A stretch of DNA of 38,911 bases from an uncultured Solibacteraceae bacterium (lineage in GTDB: Bacteria; Acidobacteriota; Vicinamibacteria; Vicinamibacterales; SCN-69-37): assembly GCA_964479175.1 (NCBI GenBank), contig CAYZLT010000001.1, positions 25,428-64,338 on the forward strand, written 5' to 3'. Under the pieces are notes generated by a model. The model saw only the letters and a list, made by a program, of their open reading frames with translations. It was not told where the DNA came from and ran no database searches. Position numbers and translations under genes: made by a program. Positions 7,109-20,163 of this stretch are shown here, piece by piece. Each line of letters opens with the position of its first letter. The first letter of the stretch is position 1.

Positions 7109-8323
7109 CTACTCCAGCGTGACGGCGACGTCCCGGCCGGTCACGATCGCCTGATTCGCCAGGATGCCGACGATCGATGCGCGTGCGCCCTCGGCCAGTG
7201 AACAGGCCACCGGTGCTCCGTCGGTGACACTCTTCAGAAAATCCATCAGTGCGTAGTAGAGGGACGGGTGCGGCAATCCCACGCCGGCCTGCAGGTTGCC
7301 CTGCTCGGCCAGTTGCGTGGCATTGGCGATGAGCACGATGCCTTCTTCGCTGAAGATCTGCTGACGAGTGGCGTAGACCTCCCACCCTTGCGTGGGTGCG
7401 TCGGCCTCCTTGAACAGCCACCCGTGTGTCCAATTCAACCGAATCGAACCATTCACACCGTTCACGACCTCCCACTGCCCCCCGTACGAGTTGGCGAGTG
7501 TGGCGCTGTACCGCATCGCCACACCATCTGCCCAAATCAGATCGAGGTCGATCGTGTCGGCTACGGTGCGCCCGTCCTTGTGATGACGCACGCCGCCGCG
7601 TCCGGCCACACGTGTCGGGTACGACCCGCGCCACCAGTGCGCCACATCAAATTGCTGCGCACCCACCTCACCGGCCAGTCCAATCGAGACTGCCGGGTCG
7701 AGACGCCAGTTGGCCTGTTCACCCGAGTCGCCTCCGCTGGCCGGGAATCGCCACGACGTCTTCCGGTGCCACTGCCCGGCCATCGACACCAGGTCGCGCA
7801 GCTCGGTGCGCACGAGAGGTTGCGCGCGTTTGTACGTGGGATTTGATCGTCCCTGAAACCCCGCCTGACAGATCGTTTCTGACGACGTAGCGGCGGCCAC
7901 CATCGCGCGGCAGTCCTCGACGGTTGATGCGATCGGCGCCTCACAGTACACATGACGGCCGTCCGCAAGAGCGTCTTCCACAATCGCGCGATGCAGATGA
8001 GTCGGCGTCGCCACCACAATCGCGGTCACGTCCGGTCGCTGCTCGAGCATGACCGTGTGGTCGGTGAAGGTCGCGGCCGACTGCGCGCGCTGCGTGGCCA
8101 GCGCCAGCCGTGCTTCCGACCGATCACACACGGCCGCGATCTCGACCTGCGGGATCTTCTGAAGTTCCGTGATGATCGCGCGACCATGCCGGCCGGTCCC
8201 CACGACGCCGACTTTGACGATGATGCCTTGCTGGAGAAATGGGAGAAGGTCAGCCGCCGTCGGCAGCAGCGCCACACCACCAAAGGCGCTGAGTGTCTGA
8301 CCGATAAACGCTCGTCGGTCCAT
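7109..8323 (-). CDS. Gfo/Idh/MocA-family oxidoreductase with Tat signal
   Basis: MDRRAFIGQTLSAFGG twin-arginine leader, VGVVGTGRHGR Rossmann motif. Last gene of the OMP / Cache-channel / SBP operon (3-nt gap to the SBP stop). Confidence 0.8.
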   Translation of the reverse strand: MDRRAFIGQTLSAFGGVALLPTAADLLPFLQQGIIVKVGVVGTGRHGRAIITELQKIPQVEIAAVCDRSEARLALATQRAQSAATFTDHTVMLEQRPDVTAIVVATPTHLHRAIVEDALADGRHVYCEAPIASTVEDCRAMVAAATSSETICQAGFQGRSNPTYKRAQPLVRTELRDLVSMAGQWHRKTSWRFPASGGDSGEQANWRLDPAVSIGLAGEVGAQQFDVAHWWRGSYPTRVAGRGGVRHHKDGRTVADTIDLDLIWADGVAMRYSATLANSYGGQWEVVNGVNGSIRLNWTHGWLFKEADAPTQGWEVYATRQQIFSEEGIVLIANATQLAEQGNLQAGVGLPHPSLYYALMDFLKSVTDGAPVACSLAEGARASIVGILANQAIVTGRDVAVTLE

Positions 8324-8326
8324 GGC

Positions 8327-9496
8327 CTACCACTCGAACGGCACGAGCTTCTCCCCTCGGACCATCGTCAACCAGACGTGATGGCTGCCCTGATGTTCCT
8401 CGCGGGAGAAGCGGAAGGGTTGTCCGACCCCGATGTCGATGGTGCCGAGGCGCTCAAAGGCCTCGATGATCCCTTCGCGCGTGACCGTCGCCCCACTGAG
8501 CGCACGACCAAACGTGCGCGCCGCCAGGAAGCCCTCGAGCGATACGGGTCCAGGTTGTGTGCCTGGAAAAAAGCGTGCAAGTGCCGATCGATACGCGGTG
8601 ACCGCCGGAAGGTCGGCCTCGTAGTGCGGCACCACCTGCGTGATGATGACTCCCTCGCTGTCGGGCCCGAGCGCAGCAATCAGCGCCTCCGATCCGACAA
8701 ACGACACGTTCAGATACGTCACATTGGACAACGCTTGTTTTGCCAGCGAAATGAACTTGGCCGACGCGCCGTACGAACCCACCATGATGATTGCTCGCGG
8801 GCGCACTCGCGCCTGCATGATGGTCAGCAATCCGTCGGCCACATCCAAGGTCCCGCGTTCGTAGCGGCCGTGCGCGAGTATCTTCGCTTCCGGATACCCG
8901 AGTGATTCGAGCGCCGCCACCGCGCCCTGATGCCCGGAGTCGCCGTACGCGTCGTTCTGTGTGAAAAACGCGATCTGCTGGGGCTTGATGCCGCGGCGCA
9001 GCAGGCCACGGACCATGACGCCGGTCTCCTCCGCATAACTCGCGCGGAAGTTGATGACATATCGATCGGGAGGATTTTTTCTGAGCACGTCGGCGCCCGA
9101 GAAGGCGCCAAAGAGCAACGTCTTTCGTTCGTTGGCAATTGGCACCGCCACGGTCGCTCCGGCCGTCCCCACACTGCCGATCACCGCCAGCACCTTCTCC
9201 TGGTCGATGAGGCGCATCATGTTGCCGCGCACTGGCTCCGCCTGATACGCATCGTCAAGTGCAACCAGCCGCAGGCGGTACCCGGCGATGCCGCCAGAGG
9301 CATTGGTTGACTGGATGAACGCCTCAATTCCCATGCGCATGCCGCGACCAAGCTGGCCGGACGGGCCACTCAGCGCGGCCGACATGCCCAGGACCACCTC
9401 GCGCTGCACGGTGTTGACCGATGCCGACCGCACCGGGATCCCCACAAGAATCACGGCTCCCGCACACGCCGCCAGAATCGAGTGACGCATCTTCAT
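8327..9496 (-). CDS. Periplasmic binding protein type I (LivK/Peripla_BP_6-like), orphan
   Basis: Signal peptide MKMRHSILAACAGAVILVG, LGMSAALSGPSGQLG, NVSFVGSEAL. Its ATG overlaps the upstream stop by 1 nt (TGATG at 9494..9498). Paralogous to the 12815..14071 product. Confidence 0.85.
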   Translation of the reverse strand: MKMRHSILAACAGAVILVGIPVRSASVNTVQREVVLGMSAALSGPSGQLGRGMRMGIEAFIQSTNASGGIAGYRLRLVALDDAYQAEPVRGNMMRLIDQEKVLAVIGSVGTAGATVAVPIANERKTLLFGAFSGADVLRKNPPDRYVINFRASYAEETGVMVRGLLRRGIKPQQIAFFTQNDAYGDSGHQGAVAALESLGYPEAKILAHGRYERGTLDVADGLLTIMQARVRPRAIIMVGSYGASAKFISLAKQALSNVTYLNVSFVGSEALIAALGPDSEGVIITQVVPHYEADLPAVTAYRSALARFFPGTQPGPVSLEGFLAARTFGRALSGATVTREGIIEAFERLGTIDIGVGQPFRFSREEHQGSHHVWLTMVRGEKLVPFEW

Positions 9497-11628
9497 CAGT
9501 AGAACACCACAAAGGTGATGACGGTAATCGCCGTCAGAATCACCGGCCAGTACAACAACTTCGGAATGATGTGATCGCCCTGCTCAAGTTTGGGAAAGTG
9601 TCCCGTATAGGTATTGGTCAACGTGATCAACGCCTGGCTGAGAATGGCGGCATAGACGACGAAGTAGAAGTACTCGATATACAGAATCGCCGAGCTCGAC
9701 ATTCTGCGTCGCAGATCAAGTTCCGACAGAATGAGGATGAAAAACAACCCTGAGAATGCGGCCAGCATCTGGACCACGTTGCTGCGAGTGTTGGGATTGA
9801 CCACCAACAACAAGGTGAACACCATGAAGCTGGAGACGGCAATCGGCAACACGCTGGAAAACAGCGGCTCAAGGATCTTGCGGTTGATGATGACGTTGAA
9901 TGCCAGCTCGTTCGCCACACCACCGGCCGAGTCGGCGATACCAAATGAGGTGTTGCGATTTGAGGCGAGGTTGCTGAACTGTGTCCGCGCGACCGACCAC
10001 CCGGGCAACGTCATGTCTTTTTCGAGCCCCAATCGCGCCAGGGGGTGAATGATTTGGTACGACTCGAGATCGGGGATCAAAATCACGCCCTTGTCGAGGT
10101 CCTGGTGCCGAATCCTGAACCGGAAGTCCTGCTGGTCAAGCGGGTACTTCGCATAGTCAAAACTCTGCCGGACCTCGGCCTTCACAAACCACCCAATCGT
10201 CTCTGAGTCCGGGTTCTTGCGCCGATACGCCTCGCGTACGGTGACGTCTGACGCTTCCGGCAGCAAAAAGCCGCGCGTGATGGTCTCCGGAATATTGGCC
10301 GGATAGGTCTGCCAGACGTAGCCGCTGACCTGGATGTTGTTGGGGCCAATGAGCTCAAACGTCTCGAGAATCACGCCCGTCGGCACAAATCGCGGCAACG
10401 TGCCACTGCGCTGCAGGGATGTGCGGGTGGTGTCGAGCACAAATTTGCGCACACTGCCGGCATTGGCAAACACCGTTTGCCCCTCAACGGGCGGCGCGGG
10501 CGCTCCAAACCCGTGTTGCCACAACATGCCGATGCCCACCACCAACATCAGGCAACTGGCGACCACCCCGCCCCACAGGACAAAGATCCTGCCGTCGGAC
10601 CGTTTCAGGATGGTGCTCCACAGGGTCAGCAGACACGCCAGCAGCACGGCCACCGTGATCGTCATTTTCTGGCGGCGGAACATCCGGATGTTCTCCGCCT
10701 GCTGCTGGAAGAACACGATGCCGACGGTCCAGCCGGTGGAGGGAACCGACCTCGACAGAATCCAACTCGCTTCTCCGGTCACCGGGTCGATCAGATTCTC
10801 GATCACGTCGACGCCGGCCGTCCGAGCGGCGTCAAAGATCCGCTGCGCCTGAACCAATGTGCCGGACCTGGCGGCGGCCGCCGGATCGAGATCACCGGAC
10901 TCATCGCCGAATTCCTGCGCGAACGGATGCGAGATCGCGAAGCCGTCTTTCGAGATCAGGAATCCATACCCGACATCCCCGAGGTCGAGGGACTGAATCA
11001 GGTCATCCACTTCAGACAGCGACATCGTCGCGTGCACCACACCGGCGGTGGCCTGCGGGGTTGACGAGGCAGGGTCGGAGAACGGAGTGGCATACTCCAC
11101 GACCGGCCCCTGTTCGCTGTCGGTCGACGGTTCGGTCCAGCCCCCGGCGGACGTGGTGCCGACCTGGTACCAGCGGGTCTCGCCAAGGGTGTAGTCGTAG
11201 AGCGAATCCAGCGGAACAAACACGGTGGATTCGCCCTGCCGTCGGAACGACGGCGCGTGCAGGCGCAGGTTCGGGTCAAACCGGTGCGGCATGAACGCCG
11301 CGCCAACGGCGAGCAGTTGTGGCGTGATGTCGATCGCCCCCTGAAGTCGGGTGGGCACCTCAGCCTTCGGCACGCGGCCGCTGCTGATGTCTGCGGCGAC
11401 GGCGTTCACCACGGCGGGAACCCGACTCAGCTCCGCATCAATGACATTGGCCGCGCGTTCCGCCTCCCTGGCCGCCCGCTCCCGCAATGCGGCGCTCGCG
11501 CGGCTGGAGCCGATCACGTAGAACACCAGGAGCGTCAGCGCGACGGCAAGACTCGCCCACTTCAGGTAATCAACGTACCGAAGCCACGGCCATTGAGCCG
11601 GGGTCACACCGGGCGTGGGATCACTCAC
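9496..11628 (-). CDS. Double-Cache sensor fused to a pentameric ligand-gated ion channel (pLGIC / Cys-loop family)-like module
   Basis: N-terminal TM, then a ~280-aa periplasmic region with dCache-like features (RWYQVG...GGWTEP, GVVHATMSLSEV, GYGFLISKDGFAISHP). Next come two TM helices and a ~200-aa beta-rich domain carrying the Cys-loop-equivalent signature KYPLDQQDFRFRI and the pre-M1 FNVIINRKILEP. Four C-terminal TM helices follow in an M1-M4 arrangement. GTG start at 11628. Confidence 0.65.
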   Translation of the reverse strand: MSDPTPGVTPAQWPWLRYVDYLKWASLAVALTLLVFYVIGSSRASAALRERAAREAERAANVIDAELSRVPAVVNAVAADISSGRVPKAEVPTRLQGAIDITPQLLAVGAAFMPHRFDPNLRLHAPSFRRQGESTVFVPLDSLYDYTLGETRWYQVGTTSAGGWTEPSTDSEQGPVVEYATPFSDPASSTPQATAGVVHATMSLSEVDDLIQSLDLGDVGYGFLISKDGFAISHPFAQEFGDESGDLDPAAAARSGTLVQAQRIFDAARTAGVDVIENLIDPVTGEASWILSRSVPSTGWTVGIVFFQQQAENIRMFRRQKMTITVAVLLACLLTLWSTILKRSDGRIFVLWGGVVASCLMLVVGIGMLWQHGFGAPAPPVEGQTVFANAGSVRKFVLDTTRTSLQRSGTLPRFVPTGVILETFELIGPNNIQVSGYVWQTYPANIPETITRGFLLPEASDVTVREAYRRKNPDSETIGWFVKAEVRQSFDYAKYPLDQQDFRFRIRHQDLDKGVILIPDLESYQIIHPLARLGLEKDMTLPGWSVARTQFSNLASNRNTSFGIADSAGGVANELAFNVIINRKILEPLFSSVLPIAVSSFMVFTLLLVVNPNTRSNVVQMLAAFSGLFFILILSELDLRRRMSSSAILYIEYFYFVVYAAILSQALITLTNTYTGHFPKLEQGDHIIPKLLYWPVILTAITVITFVVFY

Positions 11629-11631
11629 GTG

Positions 11632-12732
11632 TTAAAAAATTCCTGCGCGCTTGAGTCGCGCCGTGGGATTGACGATGACGATCAGGTCAAAGCGGTGATT
11701 GACCGGGACCGGGAACGTGTTGTCGAAGGCCTTGGTGTGGTACCAGATGAGCGACATGTCGGCGGTCACTGGGAACGTGCCGATCGTATACCACCGCTTG
11801 CCGACACCGTAGCGGTCACCATTGACGGTGGGAATGTAGGACCGATCCACGGACATGACACCCGCATTCACCGTCAACTTGCCAAACTTCAAGTCCACTG
11901 ACGCGTTCAATCCCTTGCCCTTCGGAGTGCCGGTGAACGTATTGGTCCCGGTCCGCTCCAGGTCCGACACGCGCTGATAGGCCTCGAATCGCACACCGGT
12001 CACCACCTTCGCAGCCGCAGGCGTCCGAATCACGAGAGCCTCGCGGAGGATGTCACGACCGTCTTCGTGCGTGTAATCGACCGACGCGGTGACCCGTGGC
12101 GTCAGCCTGACCCCCAGCAGGACCTGCCCGTAGTTGTAGTCAAAGCTGTCATCCAACCGGCGGAACACGTTGGGCTGGGCCACACCAAAGTGGCCGATGG
12201 TGCCCGACAGTTGGGTGATGCGCCCGGAGGTGGGCCGCACGGTGACGCGTTGACCCACGAGGTAGCCGTCCATGTCGTAGGAGATGTTCTCGGACACGTC
12301 CCCGCGGTTCGGGCCGAGGCCACCCACCTGCAGTTCCAGCCCAGAGACCGGTGCCGCGGACAGGAAGAGATGGCGCATCCAGAACTTGCCAACGAAGTCG
12401 CCCTTCCCCATACCCGTATCGTTCCAACTGGCAACGTACGTGGGGCCCGCAGAGGCCATCATGTTGACGCTGTATTTGCCGGCCGCGTCAAACAGCAGTC
12501 GCCCACGCGTCAGGCCGTGCCACTGAATACCGTCGGCGGTAACCACCTCGGCGGAGGTCTTGTTCCACCGATATCGAAGTCCCGCCTGCACTGCCTGCAC
12601 ATCGAGCCATCGTCGAATCGCCGGCGGCTCCGCTGGAGCGGCCGGGGCGGGTGTCTGAGCCAAGGTGGAGACGGGGGTCGCCAGGGCGGCGAGTCCGAAC
12701 ACGGCAAGCGATGCGAGATGAGGACGAATCAT
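11632..12732 (-). CDS. Outer-membrane beta-barrel (porin-like) protein
   Basis: Signal peptide MIRPHLASLAVFGLAALATPVSTLAQ, alternating strand pattern, C-terminal ...LKRAGIF. Start taken at ATG 12732 (ATG 12753 is also possible; the track start 12813 is unlikely). Confidence 0.65.
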   Translation of the reverse strand: MIRPHLASLAVFGLAALATPVSTLAQTPAPAAPAEPPAIRRWLDVQAVQAGLRYRWNKTSAEVVTADGIQWHGLTRGRLLFDAAGKYSVNMMASAGPTYVASWNDTGMGKGDFVGKFWMRHLFLSAAPVSGLELQVGGLGPNRGDVSENISYDMDGYLVGQRVTVRPTSGRITQLSGTIGHFGVAQPNVFRRLDDSFDYNYGQVLLGVRLTPRVTASVDYTHEDGRDILREALVIRTPAAAKVVTGVRFEAYQRVSDLERTGTNTFTGTPKGKGLNASVDLKFGKLTVNAGVMSVDRSYIPTVNGDRYGVGKRWYTIGTFPVTADMSLIWYHTKAFDNTFPVPVNHRFDLIVIVNPTARLKRAGIF

Positions 12733-12814
12733 TGCGTGGAGATTGTCCTTCATTACGGGCGTTGTTCCAATCCTGCTATCCTCTCGTCTCTTATCCCTTT
12801 GGAGGACGACCATC

Positions 12815-14071
12815 GTGACGCGACGTTCGGTCTTGATCAGTGCAATCGTGGTGGGCGCTGTGGGCCTGTCGGCCGCTCAGCCGCCCAAAGCCACCGAGGG
12901 GGTGTCGCCAACCTCGATCACGATTGGGATGTCCGCCGCCTTCACGGGAGCCTCCCGCAGCCTCGGCATCGAGCTCTTCCGCGGGTCGATGGCCTACCTG
13001 GCCGAAGTCAATCGCAATGGGGGCGTTCACGGCCGCCAGATCAGGATTCAGGCATACGACGACGGGTATCAGCCGAACGCGGCGATGAAGAACTCCCTCA
13101 AGTTGATGCTGGAAGACGACGTGTTCCTGCTGTTCAACTATGTCGGAACGCCCACGGTCACCCGTGTCCTGCCACTGCTGAAGAAGTATCAAAACCTCCA
13201 CTTTTCCCTGTTTTTCCCGTTTACAGGCGCACAGCCGCACCGCGAACCGCCGTACGGGTCGCTGGCGGTCAACCTCCGAGCCTCCTATCGGCAAGAGACG
13301 CAGGGGCTGGTCGATAACTTCCTGACGGCCGGCCGGTCGCGCATTGCGGTGTTCTACCAAGCCGACGCGTACGGTCGGAGTGGCTGGGTCGGCGTACGCG
13401 AGGCGCTCACAAAGAAGGGCCTCAAGATCGCCGGCGAAGCCACCTACACCCGGGGCACCAAGTACTCGGAGAGCCTCGACCGGCAGGTGGCGATCATGCA
13501 GGAAATCAAACCTGACGCCATCATTTCCATCGGTGCCTATGAGGCGTGTGCGGCATTCATCCGTGATGCCCGGAAGGCCGGCCTCGATGTGCCCATCGCA
13601 AACGTCTCGTTTGTCGGCAGCGAAAGCCTCCTGGCCCTGTTGAGCGCATCGTCGGCCACCGACGACCGCGACTACACGGTGAACCTCGTGAACTCGCAGG
13701 TGGTGCCCAGCTACGAAAGCGCCACCGCGCCGGTCGTGCGCGAATACCGGGCGCTGATGGAGAAACACCAACCGGACCCGCCGCAGGGGTTCGGCGACGC
13801 CGGCTACAAAATGTTGCCCTACAGCTTTGTCAGCCTCGAAGGGTTCCTGAACGCAAAACTGCTGGTCGAGGTGCTCAAGCGCATGGGCCCATCGCCGCAA
13901 CGCGCACACATTGTGTCGACGATCGAGCAATTGTCCAACATCGAATTGGGCATGGGCACGCCGGTGTCGTTTTCGCGCGAGCGGTATCAAGGGTCGGACG
14001 CGATTTATTACACCACGGTGCGCGACGGACGCTTCGTGCCCATTACGAACTGGCAGGAGTGGCGAAAGTGA
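12815..14071 (+). CDS. Periplasmic binding protein type I (LivK/Peripla_BP_6-like), orphan paralog
   Basis: GTG 12815 preceded by GGAGGA at 12801..12806. Signal peptide VTRRSVLISAIVVGAVGLSAAQ. IGMSAAFTGASRSLG, NVSFVGSESL and the C-terminal FSRERYQGS parallel the 8327..9496 protein. Confidence 0.85.
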   Translation: MTRRSVLISAIVVGAVGLSAAQPPKATEGVSPTSITIGMSAAFTGASRSLGIELFRGSMAYLAEVNRNGGVHGRQIRIQAYDDGYQPNAAMKNSLKLMLEDDVFLLFNYVGTPTVTRVLPLLKKYQNLHFSLFFPFTGAQPHREPPYGSLAVNLRASYRQETQGLVDNFLTAGRSRIAVFYQADAYGRSGWVGVREALTKKGLKIAGEATYTRGTKYSESLDRQVAIMQEIKPDAIISIGAYEACAAFIRDARKAGLDVPIANVSFVGSESLLALLSASSATDDRDYTVNLVNSQVVPSYESATAPVVREYRALMEKHQPDPPQGFGDAGYKMLPYSFVSLEGFLNAKLLVEVLKRMGPSPQRAHIVSTIEQLSNIELGMGTPVSFSRERYQGSDAIYYTTVRDGRFVPITNWQEWRK

Positions 14072-14799
14072 GAATCGCGAAACTCTTTCAAAAAACAATG
14101 TTCGGGATCTTCCTGTTGTTCGGGTTGATTGCGGTTTCCACCTCAGCGTTGTGTGTTTATACGGTCGACAAACAACTGTCGACCGAATACGAGGCCAACA
14201 GTCGCACGATTGCGCAGACGATCGCCAACTCCAGTCTCGATATCATCCTCAATCGCGACCTGTCCACCCTGCAGTCCCTCATTGACCAGTTCAAGGAACT
14301 CCAGGGCATCAAATACATCTATATCGTCGACGAACACGGCGACTGGCTGGCGCACACGTTTGTGCCGGGGATTCCGAAGGAAATTCAGTCGGCCGACCGC
14401 ACACCGGGCGCCACCGTTGAGCGGCAGTTGCCTGGGTTTGGCGAATTCGTCGAGGTCTCGAGCCCGATTCTCGACGGAATCGCCGGATCGGTGCACGTGG
14501 GCATGGACAAGGGCCTGATTGCGCTGAAGATTCAGACCGCGATCGGCCAGCAGATCTACCTGATCTCGATCATCTTCATCGTGTCGATCATCGGGTCCTA
14601 CCTGCTGGTGAATCTGGCCGCCAAACCCATCACTCGCCTGGGTGGCTACGCCACACATCTGGTGGCACCCGATGCGCCCAACGCGCTGACGCCAGACGAA
14701 GCGCAGGCGCTCCTGGAGCGGGCCGATGAAGTCGGCCAGATGGCGCGCCTCTATCGCCATCTGGCGCTGCGCAGCGAAGGCGCGGAACTCGCGCCGTGA
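14059..14799 (+). CDS. Membrane protein: periplasmic PDC/Cache-like domain + HAMP, with no output domain
   Basis: TM1 FGIFLLFGLIAVSTSALCVY, a ~130-aa periplasmic domain, TM2 IYLISIIFIVSIIGSYLLVNLAA, then a HAMP-like KPITRLGGYATHL...DEVGQMARLYRHLA, then the stop. Alternative GTG 14068 would give a GTGA overlap with the SBP stop. The stop overlaps the MFS GTG (GTGA at 14796..14799). Confidence 0.65.
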   Translation: MAKVRIAKLFQKTMFGIFLLFGLIAVSTSALCVYTVDKQLSTEYEANSRTIAQTIANSSLDIILNRDLSTLQSLIDQFKELQGIKYIYIVDEHGDWLAHTFVPGIPKEIQSADRTPGATVERQLPGFGEFVEVSSPILDGIAGSVHVGMDKGLIALKIQTAIGQQIYLISIIFIVSIIGSYLLVNLAAKPITRLGGYATHLVAPDAPNALTPDEAQALLERADEVGQMARLYRHLALRSEGAELAP

Positions 14800-16142
14800 C
14801 CGAAGCGGCACCGACCAATCGCTGGCTCGTCGCCATCATGGGCACGATCCTGCAGTTATGCCTCGGGACGGTGTACGCCTGGAGCTTTTTCCAGGCGATG
14901 CTGGTGAAGTCGTACCGCTGGTCGTATACCGACACGGCGTGGGCGTTCAGCCTGGTCATTTGCACTCTCGGAATTTCAGCCGCGTGGGCCGGCGTCAACC
15001 TGCCACGCTTCGGGCCGCGCAAACTGGCCGTCACCGGCGGCTTGTTGTTCAGCTTGAGCTACATCCTCGGTGGCCTGGCGCTGCACCTCGAAAGCCGCAC
15101 GTTGTTTTACCTCGGCTACGGCGTGGTCGGAGGATTCGGCATTGGTCTGGGCTACGTCACGCCGGTCTCTACCGTCGCCAAATGGTTCCCCGATAAGAAG
15201 GGGCTTGTCACCGGCGTCGTCGTGATGGGTTTCGGCATCGGTGCGTTTGTGATGAGCAAGGTGCTGGTCCCGCTGCTGCTGCACGCGACCGACGGCGACC
15301 TTGTGTATGTATTTGTCTCGCTGGGCGTTTTTTTCGCCATGGTCCTGCTGCCCGTGGCGATGTTCATGAAGGACCCACCAGCAGTTGCGGCCGCGGCAGC
15401 GGTCTCAACGACCGTGGTCACACCGGATCTGCCCACGAGTCACTACCTGAAGTCGAGCCAGTTCCTCATCATGTGGCTGGTCTTCTTCTGCAACATCACC
15501 GCCGGTATCTCGGTCATCAGTTTTCAGTCGCCTCTGCTGCAGGAAATTTGGGGGCTGGCCGACCCGACTGCGGAACCGGCCGCGCTGGCCACCTACGGAG
15601 CGACACTCATTGCCGTCAGCTCCCTGTTTAACGGCGTCGGGCGCTTGCTCTGGGGCATGATTTCCGACCGCATCGGACGCGTTGAGAGTTTCCGGCTCCT
15701 GCTCGCCTCCCAGATGATCGTGTTCGGCGTGTTGATGACCGAACGGGATCCGTGGATCTTCAGCGCACTCGTCTGTTATGTCCTACTGTGTTTTGGAGGC
15801 GGATTTGGCACGATGCCGTCGTTTGTCATCGATGTCTTTGGCGCCAAACGGATGTCGGTGATGTACGGCACGTTGCTCACCGCCTGGGCGGCCGCCGGCG
15901 TGGTCGGGCCCATGCTCGTGGCATCGGTCAAGGACTACTATCCGGACCGCGCCGTCCTCTATTGTTTCCTCGTCGGCGTCATGTTCCTTGGTGCGGGGTT
16001 TATTTTTTCGTTCCTGGCAACCAACGAACGGTGTGTTCCGGGGAAACCCGCACTCGACGATCTTGGGATTGCTCCCGAATATCTCCCAGCACCACGTACG
16101 CGGTTGACCACGCGTCACACAGTCGCGCCGACGGCCCCGTAA
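14796..16142 (+). CDS. MFS transporter, oxalate/formate antiporter (OFA)-like
   Basis: 12 predicted TM helices. The N-terminal LQLCLGTVYAWSFF and the GYVTPVSTVAKWFPDKKGLVTG loop are characteristic of OFA-family MFS proteins. Confidence 0.8.
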   Translation: MTEAAPTNRWLVAIMGTILQLCLGTVYAWSFFQAMLVKSYRWSYTDTAWAFSLVICTLGISAAWAGVNLPRFGPRKLAVTGGLLFSLSYILGGLALHLESRTLFYLGYGVVGGFGIGLGYVTPVSTVAKWFPDKKGLVTGVVVMGFGIGAFVMSKVLVPLLLHATDGDLVYVFVSLGVFFAMVLLPVAMFMKDPPAVAAAAAVSTTVVTPDLPTSHYLKSSQFLIMWLVFFCNITAGISVISFQSPLLQEIWGLADPTAEPAALATYGATLIAVSSLFNGVGRLLWGMISDRIGRVESFRLLLASQMIVFGVLMTERDPWIFSALVCYVLLCFGGGFGTMPSFVIDVFGAKRMSVMYGTLLTAWAAAGVVGPMLVASVKDYYPDRAVLYCFLVGVMFLGAGFIFSFLATNERCVPGKPALDDLGIAPEYLPAPRTRLTTRHTVAPTAP

Positions 16143-16764
16143 CCACCACCGACGCCGTTGCACGCTCGATCGGCACACCCGAGCGTGGATCCACGATGTG
16201 CGCGTGCGCCTGGGCTGCGGCGTCTGAGACAGAGAACGCGAGGTCTTCAAGACGAAGTCCAGGGGTCCAGGGGTCCAGGGGTCCGACGTGCACGTGCCAC
16301 GGGTGCCCAGCGACGTCGAGCCCCATCGCGATGCCGCTGCTGGTGCCGCCATGCAGAAAAGCCGACGTGATGCCGTTGGCCCGCAACAGGCGGGCGCCAC
16401 AGTCGATCGCATGCCCCTTGGCGATGCCACCCAGATCAAGCTGCATTGCGGGGTCGTCGAAGTGCAGCGTCCGCTGCCCGTGATCAAGCACGAGCGCGTG
16501 ACCATACCCCCGTGTGATGTCGAAGGCTCCGCCTGACTCCCTCCAGACGGTCTGCCCGTCCACCAACATTGCCCACACATCGTCATCACACCGGACCGCT
16601 TCAGACGCGGCCGTGCGATTGACATGGGAGAGCCAGCTGTCGGGCGCAAACCGATTGAGTCGCTGGTGCCACTCGTCGATTTCCGCCATGACGAGCTCGC
16701 CAATCGGCGCGAGGTCTGCGGCGGAGCGTACCGCAGGCAACACCAATTCGAAGCGTGTGGCCAT
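16000..16764 (-). CDS. apbE: FAD:protein FMN transferase (ApbE family), no recognisable signal peptide
   Basis: MATRFELVL..., APDSWLSHVNR, DLGGIAKGHAID, HIVDPRSGVP, CDAWSTAYVVLG. The 3' 143 nt overlap the convergent MFS gene. Confidence 0.75.
   Translation of the reverse strand: MATRFELVLPAVRSAADLAPIGELVMAEIDEWHQRLNRFAPDSWLSHVNRTAASEAVRCDDDVWAMLVDGQTVWRESGGAFDITRGYGHALVLDHGQRTLHFDDPAMQLDLGGIAKGHAIDCGARLLRANGITSAFLHGGTSSGIAMGLDVAGHPWHVHVGPLDPWTPGLRLEDLAFSVSDAAAQAHAHIVDPRSGVPIERATASVVVTGPSARLCDAWSTAYVVLGDIREQSQDRRVRVSPEHTVRWLPGTKK
16257..16284. repeat. 8-bp tandem repeat (aggggtcc x3) inside apbE
   Basis: gtcc aggggtcc aggggtcc aggggtcc. Encodes GPLDPWTPG on the minus strand. It shares the GGTCC-spacer-GGTCC motif with 5486..5572. 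Confidence 0.85.
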
Positions 16765-16796: not shown

Positions 16797-18101
16797 TCAG
16801 AGCTTGCGAACCTTCCCCGTGCGCGGGTCGAACCCGAAGGCGGCCCGTTCCCAGAACGACCGCTGCGCCAGATCCACGATCACCATGACCTTGGTGCCCA
16901 GTTCAACGTCACTCATCGGCTTTTCCCGCGTGCGGATGCAGTCCACCCAGTGGCGGCGCAACATCTCCTGCGGGTCGAGCACCTCGCCTTCTGGTGCAAT
17001 CTCGCGCTCTTCGATCTCGTCCGCCCAGATGCGCTCGGGCCTGATGATCGCGTTGCGGCCGCCGACAAACAGGTTGGCCTTGTGACCGCGGATGATGCGC
17101 TCGAGGCCCAGCTCATTACACGTCGACCCGGCCACGACCATCGTGTGGTCGTGCTCGAAATCAATGTTGATGTTGATCTGGTCCGGGTTCTCCATGGCCT
17201 TGTCGATCATGTGGCCACCGGTCGCGACGACACGGATGGGCCACCCGACATTCAGCGCCTTGAGCGTCGGCGTCACGTGATGCACCAGAAGGTCGCCAAT
17301 GATGCCGGACGAGTATTTCTTGTAGCGGCGCCACCGGGCGTAAATCTCCGGATTCCACGCGGCCTTGCCAAGGGGTTTGCACCACTGATCCCAGTCGAGA
17401 TTGCCTCCCGGCGTCCAGGCCGGGTCAATCGCGTAGTACGTCCACTCGCCGGTCTTGGTGTTGCGGCAATAACTGGTCTGACTCCACACCGGCTTGCCGA
17501 TCGCGCCTTCTGCGATCAGTTTCTCCGCGGCGACGTACGACGGCGTCATCACAAACTGCGTGCCGACGACGACAATGGCGGAAGGGTTGGCCTGGACCAC
17601 TTTGCGGAGACGCTGGGCGTCCTTGAGGTTCAAGGTCATCGGCTTTTCGACGTACACGTCTTTGCCGGCCTTGATGGCGTCTTCGGCCATGCGCCCGTGC
17701 CAGTGTTCAGGCGTGGCGATCAGGACGCCATGAATGTCTGGACGGGCGAGCACTTCTTCATGACGACGATAAGTCGCGATGTCCCCACCTTGCACTTTGT
17801 CGACGCGTGCCTTGGCATTGGCCACTCGGGGATCACACAGGTCACACAGCGCCTCAAGGCGGACCGGCCGTCCATCACGGGCGTTCCTGGCGAAGGCTTC
17901 CGCATGGCCTGTTCCCATGCCGCCCGTGCCGATGACCGCGATCTTGACGACATCGTTCGGGCCCAATGCGGGGCGGGGCTGCGCCGCAGGAATGGGTTCC
18001 AGATCTTCGGCCGCCTCGGCCTCTCGACCGGCCAGCCCCGCAGCGACCGCAGCCGCCGCGGTGGTCTTGAGGAAGTGACGACGGGATTTCGGGGTGGTCA
18101 T
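16797..18101 (-). CDS. Gfo/Idh/MocA-family oxidoreductase with Tat signal
   Basis: [20 protein letters not shown] leader, [13 protein letters not shown] Rossmann motif, EKPMT motif. Confidence 0.85.
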
Positions 18102-18997
18102 TTGGTCATCTCCGTACGGATTTTTTCGAGGAGCGCCTTGGTCCTGGCAATGCCTTCTCGTTCAGGAAGTTTGGATCCCTCGTATTCAATGCCGACCCAC
18201 GACCGGTACCCGGCATCAAGCACCGTCTTCATCAGGCGGCGATAGTCTTTCTGTGCCTCGTTGCCCTGCTCGTCGAAGTCATGGGACTTCGCTGACACCG
18301 CCTTGGCAAACGGCATGAGGTCGGCTACGCCCTGATAGCGGTCGTATTCGTAGAAGTTGCCAAAGTCAGGCAAAGTGCCACAGCGGGGATGGTCAACCAT
18401 CTTCATGACCCCGGAGAGCCACTTGCCGTCTGACGACAAGCCTCCGTGATTTTCGACGACCACATTGAGGTTCATCGGCGCGGCCAGCTCGGTCAATTTT
18501 CTGAGGCCATCGGCGGCGAGTTTCTGCTGTTCCTCGAATGACCCGACACTGGCGGCGTTCACACGGATGGTCACACACCCGAGCACCTTGGCGGCATCGA
18601 GCCACTTGCGGTGATTTTCGACGGCGGTCGCGCGGAGGGCCAGGTCCGGATCACCCAGCCGGCCCTCGCCGTCACACATGATCAGGTACTGCGTCACGCC
18701 CTCATCAGCCGCGCGTGTGTTCATCTCCGCGAGATACGCCGAGTCGCGCGCCTTGTCCTTGAAGAAGGAATTGACGTACTCAATCGCCTCGATCCCGAAA
18801 TCGCGTTTCGCCACGCGCGCAAAATCGAGGTGGTCGATCTCTTTTGCGCGCAGTGTGCGGTGCAGCGACCACTGCGCCAGGGAGATTTTGAACAACGGCG
18901 CGGGCTGCGCCGCCGACAGCACCCCGGAAAACGGCGTCAACGCCACGGCGCCGACGGTGGTCTGAAGGAAACTTCGTCTGGTCCACTCGTGTGTCAT
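18098..18997 (-). CDS. Xylose isomerase-like TIM-barrel (sugar phosphate isomerase/epimerase family) protein with Tat signal
   Basis: [15 protein letters not shown] leader. IEYVN, IRVNA, VVENHGG and WVGIEYEG strand-end motifs. ATGA start/stop overlaps at both ends (18098..18101 and 18994..18997). Confidence 0.8.
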
Positions 18998-20163
18998 TTG
19001 ATCCCCCTGCTGGCCGTGCTGACTTTAACCGTTCGTCCGCCCCGTGCCGCCGACTTGTCCACCGCCAAACAGACCCGCATCGTGATGTCGGCATCGTACA
19101 CGTTCAGGTGTGTCTCCCGGTCCGCCAGGATACACGCGACGAGTTCATCAATTTCGCCCTGAAACGGGTGATGTGACACATCTGCCGATCCGGGCATCAC
19201 CGTCTCAATCCGAATCGCTGCCGCTCCAGTGGGCGTCGTCGCCGCATGAAACGTGACGTCGTCAAACGGGCAGGCCTTGCGCAGCTGGGCGAGGCTCAGC
19301 GGCGTATCCTGCCAGAGAATCAGGTCGTCACGCAGCGAGGCGCGATCGCCCATCATCTCGACGCCAAAGGTGTACGGCATCTGCAAATCCGTCGAACTGA
19401 CGAGCTGCGCGAGTACGGGTTCGCCTTTTTGTGCTCCACTGGACGTCATCTTCACGTTGGCAATCACCGACGTGGGCCACTGATAGCCCTTGGTGATGGT
19501 CGACTGGAAGGCCGAGACCTCGGTCACCTCCAGCCCTGTGCACCATCGGAGTGCATCCACAGCGTGGCATCCCGCAGCCAACAGGTGGCTGCGGCCACTC
19601 CTTTTTGTGCGCACCCACGACCATCCCGAATACCAGTCGGTGACTCGCGACAGATACTGGAATCTGGCGAAGATCAGGTTGCCCAGCCACCCTTCTTCAC
19701 GCAACCATCGCGCGAATCTCAGGTACGGGTTGTAGTGCAGCTCAAAGGACACGATGGTGCGAACACCGGCTTTACAAACGGCGTCACGAATCCGTTTGAG
19801 TTCGGGCTCGTCGAGACCGGTGGGTTTCTCCAGCAGGATGTGTTTGCCGGCTTTTGCCGCTGCCACCGCCTGGTCCGCGTGCAGGTGATTGGGCGTCGCG
19901 ATCGAGATGATGTCGATATCGGGCGCGTTCAGGAGGTCCCGGAAACGCGTCGTGAACCGGGCCTCCGGCAACGTCAGGCCGTCGTCGGCAAGCCGCTTCC
20001 GGCCGCGCGTTTCATCCCGTCCACACAGCGCCACGATTCGGCAGTGGGGATTGTTGGCAAACGCAGCGAGATGCTGGCTCGCCACCCAGCCCACGCCGAC
20101 CAGACCCACTCCAAGCGTTCGCACGGAGGAAGTGTAGTCCGAGACGGGAGGTTCTGCGTTCAT
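18994..20163 (-). CDS. Gfo/Idh/MocA-family oxidoreductase (no signal peptide)
   Basis: [13 protein letters not shown] Rossmann motif, LLEKPTG motif. Confidence 0.8.

Follow-up and report, generated by a model that had tools for sequence, protein, structure and literature searches.

A conserved gene trio of a periplasmic binding protein, an output-less Cache-HAMP protein and an MFS carrier: a possible binding-protein-coupled carboxylate uptake module

To our knowledge, substrate-binding proteins (SBP) are used in transport only by ABC, TRAP/TAXI and TTT systems and, as recognized recently, by TAXI-GltS, while transporters of the major facilitator superfamily (MFS), the largest transporter superfamily, are thought to function without SBP. 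Here, we describe a three-gene locus (the trio) that encodes an SBP (SBP2), a short membrane protein with a Cache domain, a HAMP-like segment and no output domain, and an MFS carrier. The locus lies in a stretch of 38,911 nucleotides (nt), referred to as the window, from an uncultured Solibacteraceae bacterium (GTDB lineage Bacteria; Acidobacteriota; Vicinamibacteria; Vicinamibacterales; SCN-69-37; GenBank assembly GCA_964479175.1, contig CAYZLT010000001.1, positions 25,428 to 64,338 of the forward strand). In the literature on SBP-dependent MFS transporters, on Peripla_BP_6 proteins with Cache sensors and on output-less HAMP proteins, we found reviews of SBP-dependent sensors as well as TAXI-GltS and no description of the trio. 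We find that the three genes are linked across bacterial phyla, and consider the possibility that the SBP and the Cache-HAMP protein act on the carrier.

LuxP-LuxQ of Vibrio and BasB-BasT of Halobacterium salinarum resemble the trio in that an SBP gene lies beside the gene for a receptor with an extracytoplasmic PAS/Cache-type domain; moreover, BasB is a Peripla_BP_6 protein (review PMC8050422). The trio has the adjacent and conserved SBP-Cache receptor pair of these systems and not their transmitter: LuxQ and BasT have kinase or transducer outputs and a double Cache-like domain, whereas the protein in the window has a single sCache_3_2 domain and stops after HAMP, and its gene is linked to that of an MFS carrier. 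TRAP (DctPQM), TTT (TctCBA) and TAXI-GltS share with the trio the combination of an SBP, a small membrane protein and a large carrier in the absence of an ATPase. However, the components differ, i.e. Pfam identifies Peripla_BP_6, sCache_3_2 and MFS_1 instead of DctP/TAXI/TctC, DctQ/TctB and DctM/TctA, and the trio carrier belongs to the rocker-switch MFS transporters whereas DctM, TctA and GltS are elevator-type transporters.

CitA/DcuS-type kinases have the PDC domain (PF17203) of the window protein, which lacks their HisKA/HATPase_c transmitter. In DcuS-DctA/DcuB, a CitA/DcuS-type PDC sensor physically partners a carboxylate carrier, and in UhpC-UhpB an MFS protein partners a membrane sensor. 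In these systems, the transporter modulates kinase signalling to DNA and no SBP is involved; by contrast, the trio includes no kinase, so that information could end only at the carrier or at another partner. Af1503 of Archaeoglobus fulgidus, in the work of Hulko et al. 2006, reportedly consists of a transmembrane helix (TM), an extracytoplasmic domain, a second TM and HAMP with no output; we liken it to the window protein only in its architecture, and know of no linkage of Af1503 to an SBP or an MFS protein. Among carriers, SfMCT, the L-lactate/H+ symporter of Syntrophobacter fumaroxidans, works alone and lacks the extra periplasmic loop segment of the trio carrier. Mammalian SLC16 carriers such as MCT1, which partners basigin, need a membrane-anchored ancillary protein, and basigin is unrelated to Cache-HAMP proteins. 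By analogy, the trio would work most like LuxPQ or BasBT outside the membrane and like an accessory-controlled carrier within it.

The three open reading frames (ORF) of the trio lie on the same (+) strand and span positions 12815-16142, and the stop and start codons of neighbouring genes overlap. The features referred to below, all on the + strand, are:

12801..12806: Shine-Dalgarno-like GGAGGA, 8 nt ahead of the SBP2 start codon (direct reading of the sequence)
12815..14071: SBP2, a 418-amino-acid (aa) periplasmic binding protein, Peripla_BP_6, 4KV7-like (Pfam, PDB match, orthologues)
12815-12880: SBP2 signal peptide with the twin-arginine-like motif MTRRSVLI (sequence)
14068..14071: GTGA overlap of the SBP2 stop and the Cache-HAMP start (sequence)
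14068..14799: 243-aa output-less sensor with TM1, sCache_3_2, TM2 and HAMP, followed by the stop
14098..14166: TM1, aa 11-33 (alignment)
14167..14523: periplasmic sCache_3_2 (PDC) domain, aa 34-152, with the conserved motifs HTFVPGIP and VHVGMD (Pfam, Foldseek)
14554..14616: TM2, aa 163-183, where conservation most exceeds that in long relatives
14617..14772: HAMP-like segment, aa 184-235, with AS1 from AAKP and AS2 with DEVGQMARLY; the tail behind it is short and variable
14796..14799: GTGA overlap of the Cache-HAMP stop (TGA 14797-14799) and the MFS start (sequence)
14796..16142: 448-aa MFS carrier, SfMCT/SLC16-like within the OFA branch, start GTG 14796
15546..15578: periplasmic insertion in the loop between TM7 and TM8 of the carrier, aa 251-261, IWGLADPTAEP (a gap in the alignment with SfMCT)

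The best start codon of SBP2 is GTG 12815 and its stop codon is TGA 14069-14071. For the Cache-HAMP gene, GTG 14059 is possible; GTG 14068 is the better start, because AGGAG lies 8 nt upstream of it, because it overlaps with the SBP2 stop codon in GTGA and because its 243-aa product has the modal length of the closest homologues (240-250 aa). Thus, the output-less membrane protein proposed in a previous reading made from the letters and ORFs of the window (the sequence-only reading) was recovered with a length of 243 rather than 246 aa. The MFS start codon GTG 14796 is supported by Arg9 of the product, which is conserved in homologues. Both junctions had been proposed to be coupled, and both indeed consist of a GTGA overlap. 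Similarly, among 74 trio loci, the distance between the SBP and the sensor gene lies between -4 and +4 nt in 65, and the gap between the sensor and the MFS gene, with a median of 40 nt, does not exceed 150 nt in 69. Between positions 12500 and 16500, a scan for consensus promoters gave a single promoter-like site, on the opposite strand, and a scan for terminators gave six weak hairpins, where about three are expected by chance, none of them at a gene junction. Scans of the window for Rfam families and tRNAs detected neither.

In the 243-aa protein, sCache_3_2 (PF17203; E 4e-13; 50 bits vs the cut-off of 28.4) was the sole Pfam match above threshold, and the same family was matched by 24 of 24 members of the family of short homologues. 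Domain profile searches detected no kinase (HisKA/HATPase_c), MCP or cyclase domain, and the protein stops after approximately eight variable residues following AS2, with the MFS gene coming next; the absence of an output domain, which had been read from the sequence, is therefore upheld. The presence of HAMP in the 243-aa protein is supported indirectly, by homology: PF00672 (HAMP) was matched by 14 of 24 close homologues with a best E of 1.3e-4, aa 184-235 align by hhalign with 100% probability to the Pfam-significant HAMP of long relatives, and the HAMP signature residues Pro187, Asp220, Glu221 and Gly223 are invariant in the short family. An AlphaFold2 model based on 24 homologues has a long N-terminal helix with TM1, a PDC-type sheet, a continuous helix at 148-199 with TM2 and a final helix at 221-239, the latter two being as expected for HAMP. 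In a Foldseek search, it best matched the stretch of a WalK model that comprises TM-PDC-TM-HAMP (TM-score 0.69 on the query) and, next, the periplasmic domains of CitA; the PDB search by sequence returned only weak CitA matches (E 0.04). In public annotation, the short protein is a citrate/malate sensor kinase.

The short proteins form a family of their own. Among the best 120 database matches of the 243-aa protein, which are 60-93% identical to it, lengths are 214-258 aa in all but three (187, 350, few fragments), and the short-family members extracted from the loci are 237-257 aa long (approximately 77 distinct sequences), none of them with a transmitter. Likewise, when 50%-identity cluster representatives were searched exhaustively, proteins of approximately 240-256 aa that matched over their full length ranked first, and from approximately 47% identity downwards the module of residues 1-235 formed the N terminus of larger proteins (500-1200 aa). 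When 78 short proteins were aligned with 73 modules of long proteins, the two groups separated perfectly, with identities of at least 48% (mean 74%) between short proteins and of at most 43% between short and long ones. By these lengths and this clean separation, the output-less form is an old and stable lineage. A recent truncation of a kinase, which the sequence-only reading had named as a finding that would speak against its proposal, was rejected on the basis of the uniform length of approximately 240-250 aa and the separate clade. In 74 longer cluster representatives, the 25 commonest Pfam families included neither an MFS nor an SBP domain, which gives no indication of recurrent fusions of Cache-HAMP to either; rare ones could escape from such a list. 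Compared to the long relatives, TM2 and AS2 are the most conserved parts of the short proteins, i.e. the short/long conservation ratio is 1.54 in the region of aa 156-184, which contains TM2, vs 1.27 overall; TM1 has a conservation of 0.84 in the short family vs 0.62 in long relatives.

A pattern scan with one genome per species identified 478 stretches encoding a relative, of which the best 80 were fetched. Together with two look-ups, these gave 82 loci, two of which were cut by contig ends. All 80 scanned records were metagenome-assembled bins, and groups were assigned by record title. The genes for the SBP, the short sensor and the MFS carrier were present together in every one of the 80 assessable loci, including two rearranged loci in which the MFS gene precedes the SBP gene by 2 nt and the Cache gene is divergent, with the three genes still linked. 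The hosts represent at least eight phyla and include Acidobacteriota, Binatia, Latescibacterota, Gemmatimonadota, Alpha- and Gammaproteobacteria, Thermodesulfobacteriota, Verrucomicrobiota and Actinomycetota. The 80 scanned loci comprise Binatia (18), Latescibacterota (17), Acidobacteriota (14), Gammaproteobacteria (12), Alphaproteobacteria (10) and Gemmatimonadota (4), and one locus each from Thermodesulfobacteriota, Deltaproteobacteria, Opitutales, Acidimicrobiia and an unclassified record. Around the trio, no other neighbours (enzymes, regulators or ABC parts) were conserved beyond synteny at the level of lineages: apart from a larger cluster that is apparently a spurious ORF opposite the Cache gene, the next commonest gene cluster was confined to 15 loci, all of a single lineage. 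Because the genes are together in every locus whose contig allows the test, the trio is not a chance arrangement, and its recurrence elsewhere, on which the sequence-only reading had turned, is borne out. In total, comparative genomics strongly supports that the three genes are functionally coupled. The interpretation in the sequence-only reading, i.e. either a carrier regulated by an SBP-loaded sensor or an SBP-dependent secondary transporter, is thus supported in part.

The long relatives, in which the module is 35-47% identical to that of the window protein, have HisKA/HATPase, MCP, SpoIIE, GGDEF/EAL or cyclase outputs; in detail, these are PAS/GAF with HisKA/HATPase_c and in some cases REC or Hpt, MCPsignal, SpoIIE with or without HATPase_c_2, GGDEF/EAL, and cyclase. 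In a comparison set of 80 metagenome loci encoding long sensors, the gene directly upstream of the sensor was an SBP2 orthologue in 77, with 46-63% identity, and the two genes overlapped by exactly 4 nt in 65 of the 73 loci in which the overlap could be measured. SBP2, which had been regarded as an orphan binding protein, is by this comparison a dedicated partner of the Cache-HAMP module. A trio-type MFS was encoded in none of the 80 long-sensor loci; thus, the MFS is found only where the output domain is missing. Moreover, in a search seeded with the SBP, three look-ups at 62-65% identity each gave an SBP followed by an sCache_3_2-HAMP sensor with a 4-nt overlap: the SBP2 relative is paired with a hybrid kinase, then a GAF-cyclase, in Lusitaniella coriacea, with a chemoreceptor inside a che cluster in Moorena and with another chemoreceptor in a JGI contig. 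The adjacency of SBP2 relatives to Cache-HAMP proteins with such varied outputs supports that the SBP and the Cache-HAMP module form a widespread sensory input cassette. Between the trio and the sensor cassettes, the SBPs are on average 55% identical and the Cache modules 37%.

SBP2 matches Peripla_BP_6 (Pfam, E 4e-46) with 4KV7 as its best PDB match (E 1e-43), and its orthologues upstream of Cache-HAMP homologues are 55-91% identical to it. The trio SBPs cluster apart from the sensor-cassette SBPs, and the two types differ in their signal peptides: twin-arginine (Tat-type) signal peptides with MTRRxLLR are present in 69-71 of 75 trio SBPs, whereas among the sensor-cassette SBPs 61 of 61 have Sec-type signals and 0 of 61 a twin-arginine signal. 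The RR motif is absent from the SBPs of L003-L006, which are the window's four closest relatives, and the window itself has TRRSVL. In public annotation, the SBP is a branched-chain amino acid ABC substrate-binding protein. The comparison with LIV-I-type SBPs supports the shared Peripla_BP_6 fold and neither LivHMGF neighbours nor LivJ contacts: no LivHMGF-type ABC permease or ATPase genes lie near the trio in the window or are conserved across the 82 loci, and the LivJ contacts to the alpha-amino and carboxylate groups (Ser79, Thr102, Tyr202, Glu226) are not kept in the SBP2 type. Specifically, Thr102 is replaced by Pro, Tyr202 by Ala or Ser and Ser79 by Thr, Glu226 falls in a gap, and Tyr150 is kept, in a low-identity alignment with a LivJ sequence entered by hand, the numbering of which checked out. 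At the LivJ pocket positions, the trio SBPs and the sensor-cassette SBPs have identical residues. From these shared residues and the lack of the alpha-amino contacts, one ligand is probably read in all contexts, and its mode of binding probably differs from that of amino acids in LivJ.

The carrier matches MFS_1 (Pfam, E 2e-29) and narrowly passes the cut-off of the NCBIfam model for the SfMCT L-lactate transporter (NF049980; 326.9 bits vs 320). By contrast, it remains below the cut-offs of the OFA models TIGR00890 (199 bits vs 374.85) and TIGR04259 (159 vs 335). In PDB, SfMCT (6G9X) was the best match (E 3e-34) and OxlT the second (E 2e-24). By these sequence scores, the carrier is related to the OFA branch and is not an OxlT equivalog. 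The earlier assignment to the OFA family was thus right on the superfamily and on kinship with the OFA branch, within which the protein is closer to the SLC16-like SfMCT than to OxlT. Comparing functional residues of SfMCT (PMC6573034) through a phmmer alignment, we found that the carboxylate site of Tyr119 (TM4), Asn276 and Arg280 (TM8) corresponds to Tyr120, Asn279 and Arg283 and is invariant in 75 trio carriers, as are the likewise conserved counterparts of Phe335, Lys377 and Asp378. At the proton site His250/Arg256/Asp257, the carrier has Phe243/Gln249/Glu250, with His250 and Arg256 not kept, and in the pocket Leu145 is replaced by Phe146, Phe359 by Leu361 and Cys362 by Trp364. Because the carboxylate site is kept, a carboxylate, though not necessarily L-lactate, is the likely substrate; because proton-site and pocket residues are replaced, substrate and coupling may differ from those of SfMCT. 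The insertion in the TM7-TM8 loop is conserved in the 75 trio carriers as vWGLADPxxEP, and a cytoplasmic C-terminal motif, RxxxxRPxLExxGI (aa ~405-425; positions 16000-16070), is common to the trio carriers. The insertion and the motif are candidate contact sites for the SBP, the Cache domain or HAMP. A convergent ApbE-family gene (16000-16764, - strand) overlaps the last 143 nt of the MFS ORF. The overlapped part of the MFS tail (aa beyond ~425) is not conserved in homologues; therefore, the MFS C terminus or the ApbE stop may lie elsewhere than called.

We tentatively favour, at somewhat short of an even chance, that the trio is a binding-protein-coupled carboxylate uptake module in which a dimer of the Cache-HAMP protein controls the carrier after docking of the SBP. 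SBP2 would be exported to the periplasm and bind a small ligand, most likely a monocarboxylate. The closed, liganded SBP would then dock on the sCache domain of the dimeric TM-Cache-TM-HAMP receptor, in the same way as it would in the relatives in which the module drives a kinase, chemoreceptor or phosphatase. With no covalent output in the receptor, a change in its conformation would instead pass through TM2 and HAMP and be read by the SfMCT-like MFS H+/carboxylate carrier, which the receptor would switch on, or bias in affinity or direction, when external substrate is present. We infer the SBP-Cache docking, the receptor-MFS contact, the direction of control and the substrate from sequence comparisons, and in the same manner that the carrier has taken the place of the missing output. 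The invariant HAMP signatures, the excess conservation of TM2 and AS2, and the C-terminal motif and loop insertion of the carrier lend soft support to allosteric control.

Several points weigh against allosteric control of the carrier. Operon linkage alone would also be compatible with a sensor accessory and a transporter that handle one compound and are simply co-regulated, and we know of no established experimental precedent for a HAMP domain that controls a transporter. Moreover, of the two domains that the sequence-only reading had assigned to the short protein, Cache was confirmed directly, while PF00672 gave no Pfam match on the window protein at E up to 1, leaving HAMP to the homology described above. 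The AlphaFold2 model of the protein is of moderate confidence (pLDDT 72.5), and TM2 and AS2 may appear so conserved in part because the short family was sampled more narrowly. A stronger version of the proposal, namely that a kinase-less sensor was recruited as a membrane adaptor or gate that makes transport depend on the ligand-loaded SBP, so that the trio would constitute a new transporter class, is in our judgement less likely than not.

Alternatively, the SBP could hand its ligand directly to the outward-open MFS carrier, in a manner similar to TRAP and TTT systems, with the Cache-HAMP protein only anchoring or orienting the SBP and passing no information across the membrane. The tripartite layout of an SBP, a small membrane protein and a 12-TM carrier is that of TRAP and TTT, and new SBP-dependent classes are still emerging, e.g. 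TAXI-GltS (PMC12344293). The two rearranged loci, where the SBP gene is coupled with the MFS and not with the Cache gene, the separate cluster and distinct signal peptide type of the trio SBPs, and the conserved periplasmic loop insertion in the carrier all fit such a delivery. Similarly, many of the hosts are metagenome-assembled genomes (MAG) with names suggesting sponge, groundwater and lake samples, and SBP-dependent scavenging is favoured in nutrient-poor habitats. However, a pure anchor would have no need of invariant HAMP signatures, no MFS transporter is known to accept its substrate from an SBP, and the residues at the LivJ positions are the same in the trio SBPs and in purely sensory SBPs that are ~55% identical overall. 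We therefore regard direct delivery as unlikely, although it is to be taken seriously.

The Cache-HAMP protein could also signal to an unlinked kinase or chemoreceptor, by heterodimerization or docking, or function as an SBP decoy, with the MFS carrier merely co-expressed. This would agree with the module being a signalling input wherever else it occurs and with the one alphaproteobacterial locus in which signalling genes follow the trio; moreover, sensor proteins that are split or act as accessories are known elsewhere. However, no signalling gene is conserved beside the trio, where no other cluster occurs in more than 15 of ~80 loci, the identity of at most 43% between short and long modules makes heterodimers less likely, and the MFS gene is linked in every assessable locus. 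On balance, this alternative is improbable. Finally, that an ordinary amino-acid ABC binding protein lies beside a decaying, truncated kinase gene and an unrelated transporter gene would agree with the public annotations (ABC amino-acid SBP; citrate/malate sensor kinase), and is essentially excluded by the lack of nearby ABC genes and of the LivJ alpha-amino contacts, the uniform length and separate clade of the short form, and the presence of the trio in at least eight phyla.

Divergent to the trio, the window contains a second unit with a Peripla_BP_6 protein:

9496-11628, - strand: gene for a 710-aa protein with dCache in its N-terminal half
8327-9496 and 11632-12813, - strand: ORFs beside the gene for the 710-aa protein

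In the 710-aa protein, Pfam sees dCache alone. The C-terminal half, as modelled by AlphaFold2 (pLDDT 68.6), matches the pentameric ligand-gated ion channel (pLGIC) GLIC (6ZGK; E 3.7e-7; TM-score 0.53 on the target) and also 3EAM. This dCache-pLGIC gene is followed by the gene for a paralogous Peripla_BP_6 SBP (SBP1), which is 36% identical to SBP2, in agreement with the paralogy proposed before. The pair is kept on other contigs at ~50% identity, where neither the trio nor the upstream porin-like gene accompanies it. The dCache-pLGIC protein may be a channel gated by a binding protein, and together with its SBP it would be a case parallel to an SBP-dependent MFS. In total, the window contains two units that pair a Peripla_BP_6 protein with a Cache-bearing membrane protein linked to a transport device rather than to a kinase.

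In an alphaproteobacterial MAG (locus L007, 9284-14260, on a contig shared with L002), a REC-SpoIIE phosphatase and a HATPase_c_2 protein are encoded directly downstream of the trio; further on, the gene for a Peripla_BP_6 protein that is 41% identical to SBP1 overlaps by 4 nt with that for a histidine kinase with TorS-like sensor and HAMP domains. Thus, by sequence, this Peripla_BP_6 subgroup seems to pair with several kinds of sensor. In the window, the locus is flanked by genes for Gfo/Idh/MocA-type oxidoreductases (16797-20163 and 7109-8323, both on the - strand), some of the ORFs having twin-arginine N termini; one flanking ORF reads as a xylose-isomerase-like barrel, the domain scan having covered 7109-8323 alone. 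Further along, there are genes for DUF1501/DUF1800 proteins, a CHAT-TPR protein and a 3-keto-disaccharide hydrolase. The nearest homologues of the window are in MAGs of Vicinamibacterales and other Acidobacteriota, which together with these genes points to an acidobacterial origin.

The combination of a 4KV7-like Peripla_BP_6 protein with an sCache_3_2-HAMP protein represents a previously unremarked cassette. In many phyla, and among them in cultured cyanobacteria, it provides the input to kinases, chemoreceptors, PP2C phosphatases and cyclases. For hundreds of genomes, the labels "branched-chain amino acid ABC binding protein" and "citrate/malate sensor kinase" are misleading. If our reading of the trio is true, SBP dependence would extend to the MFS, or HAMP would act on a transporter instead of on an enzyme.

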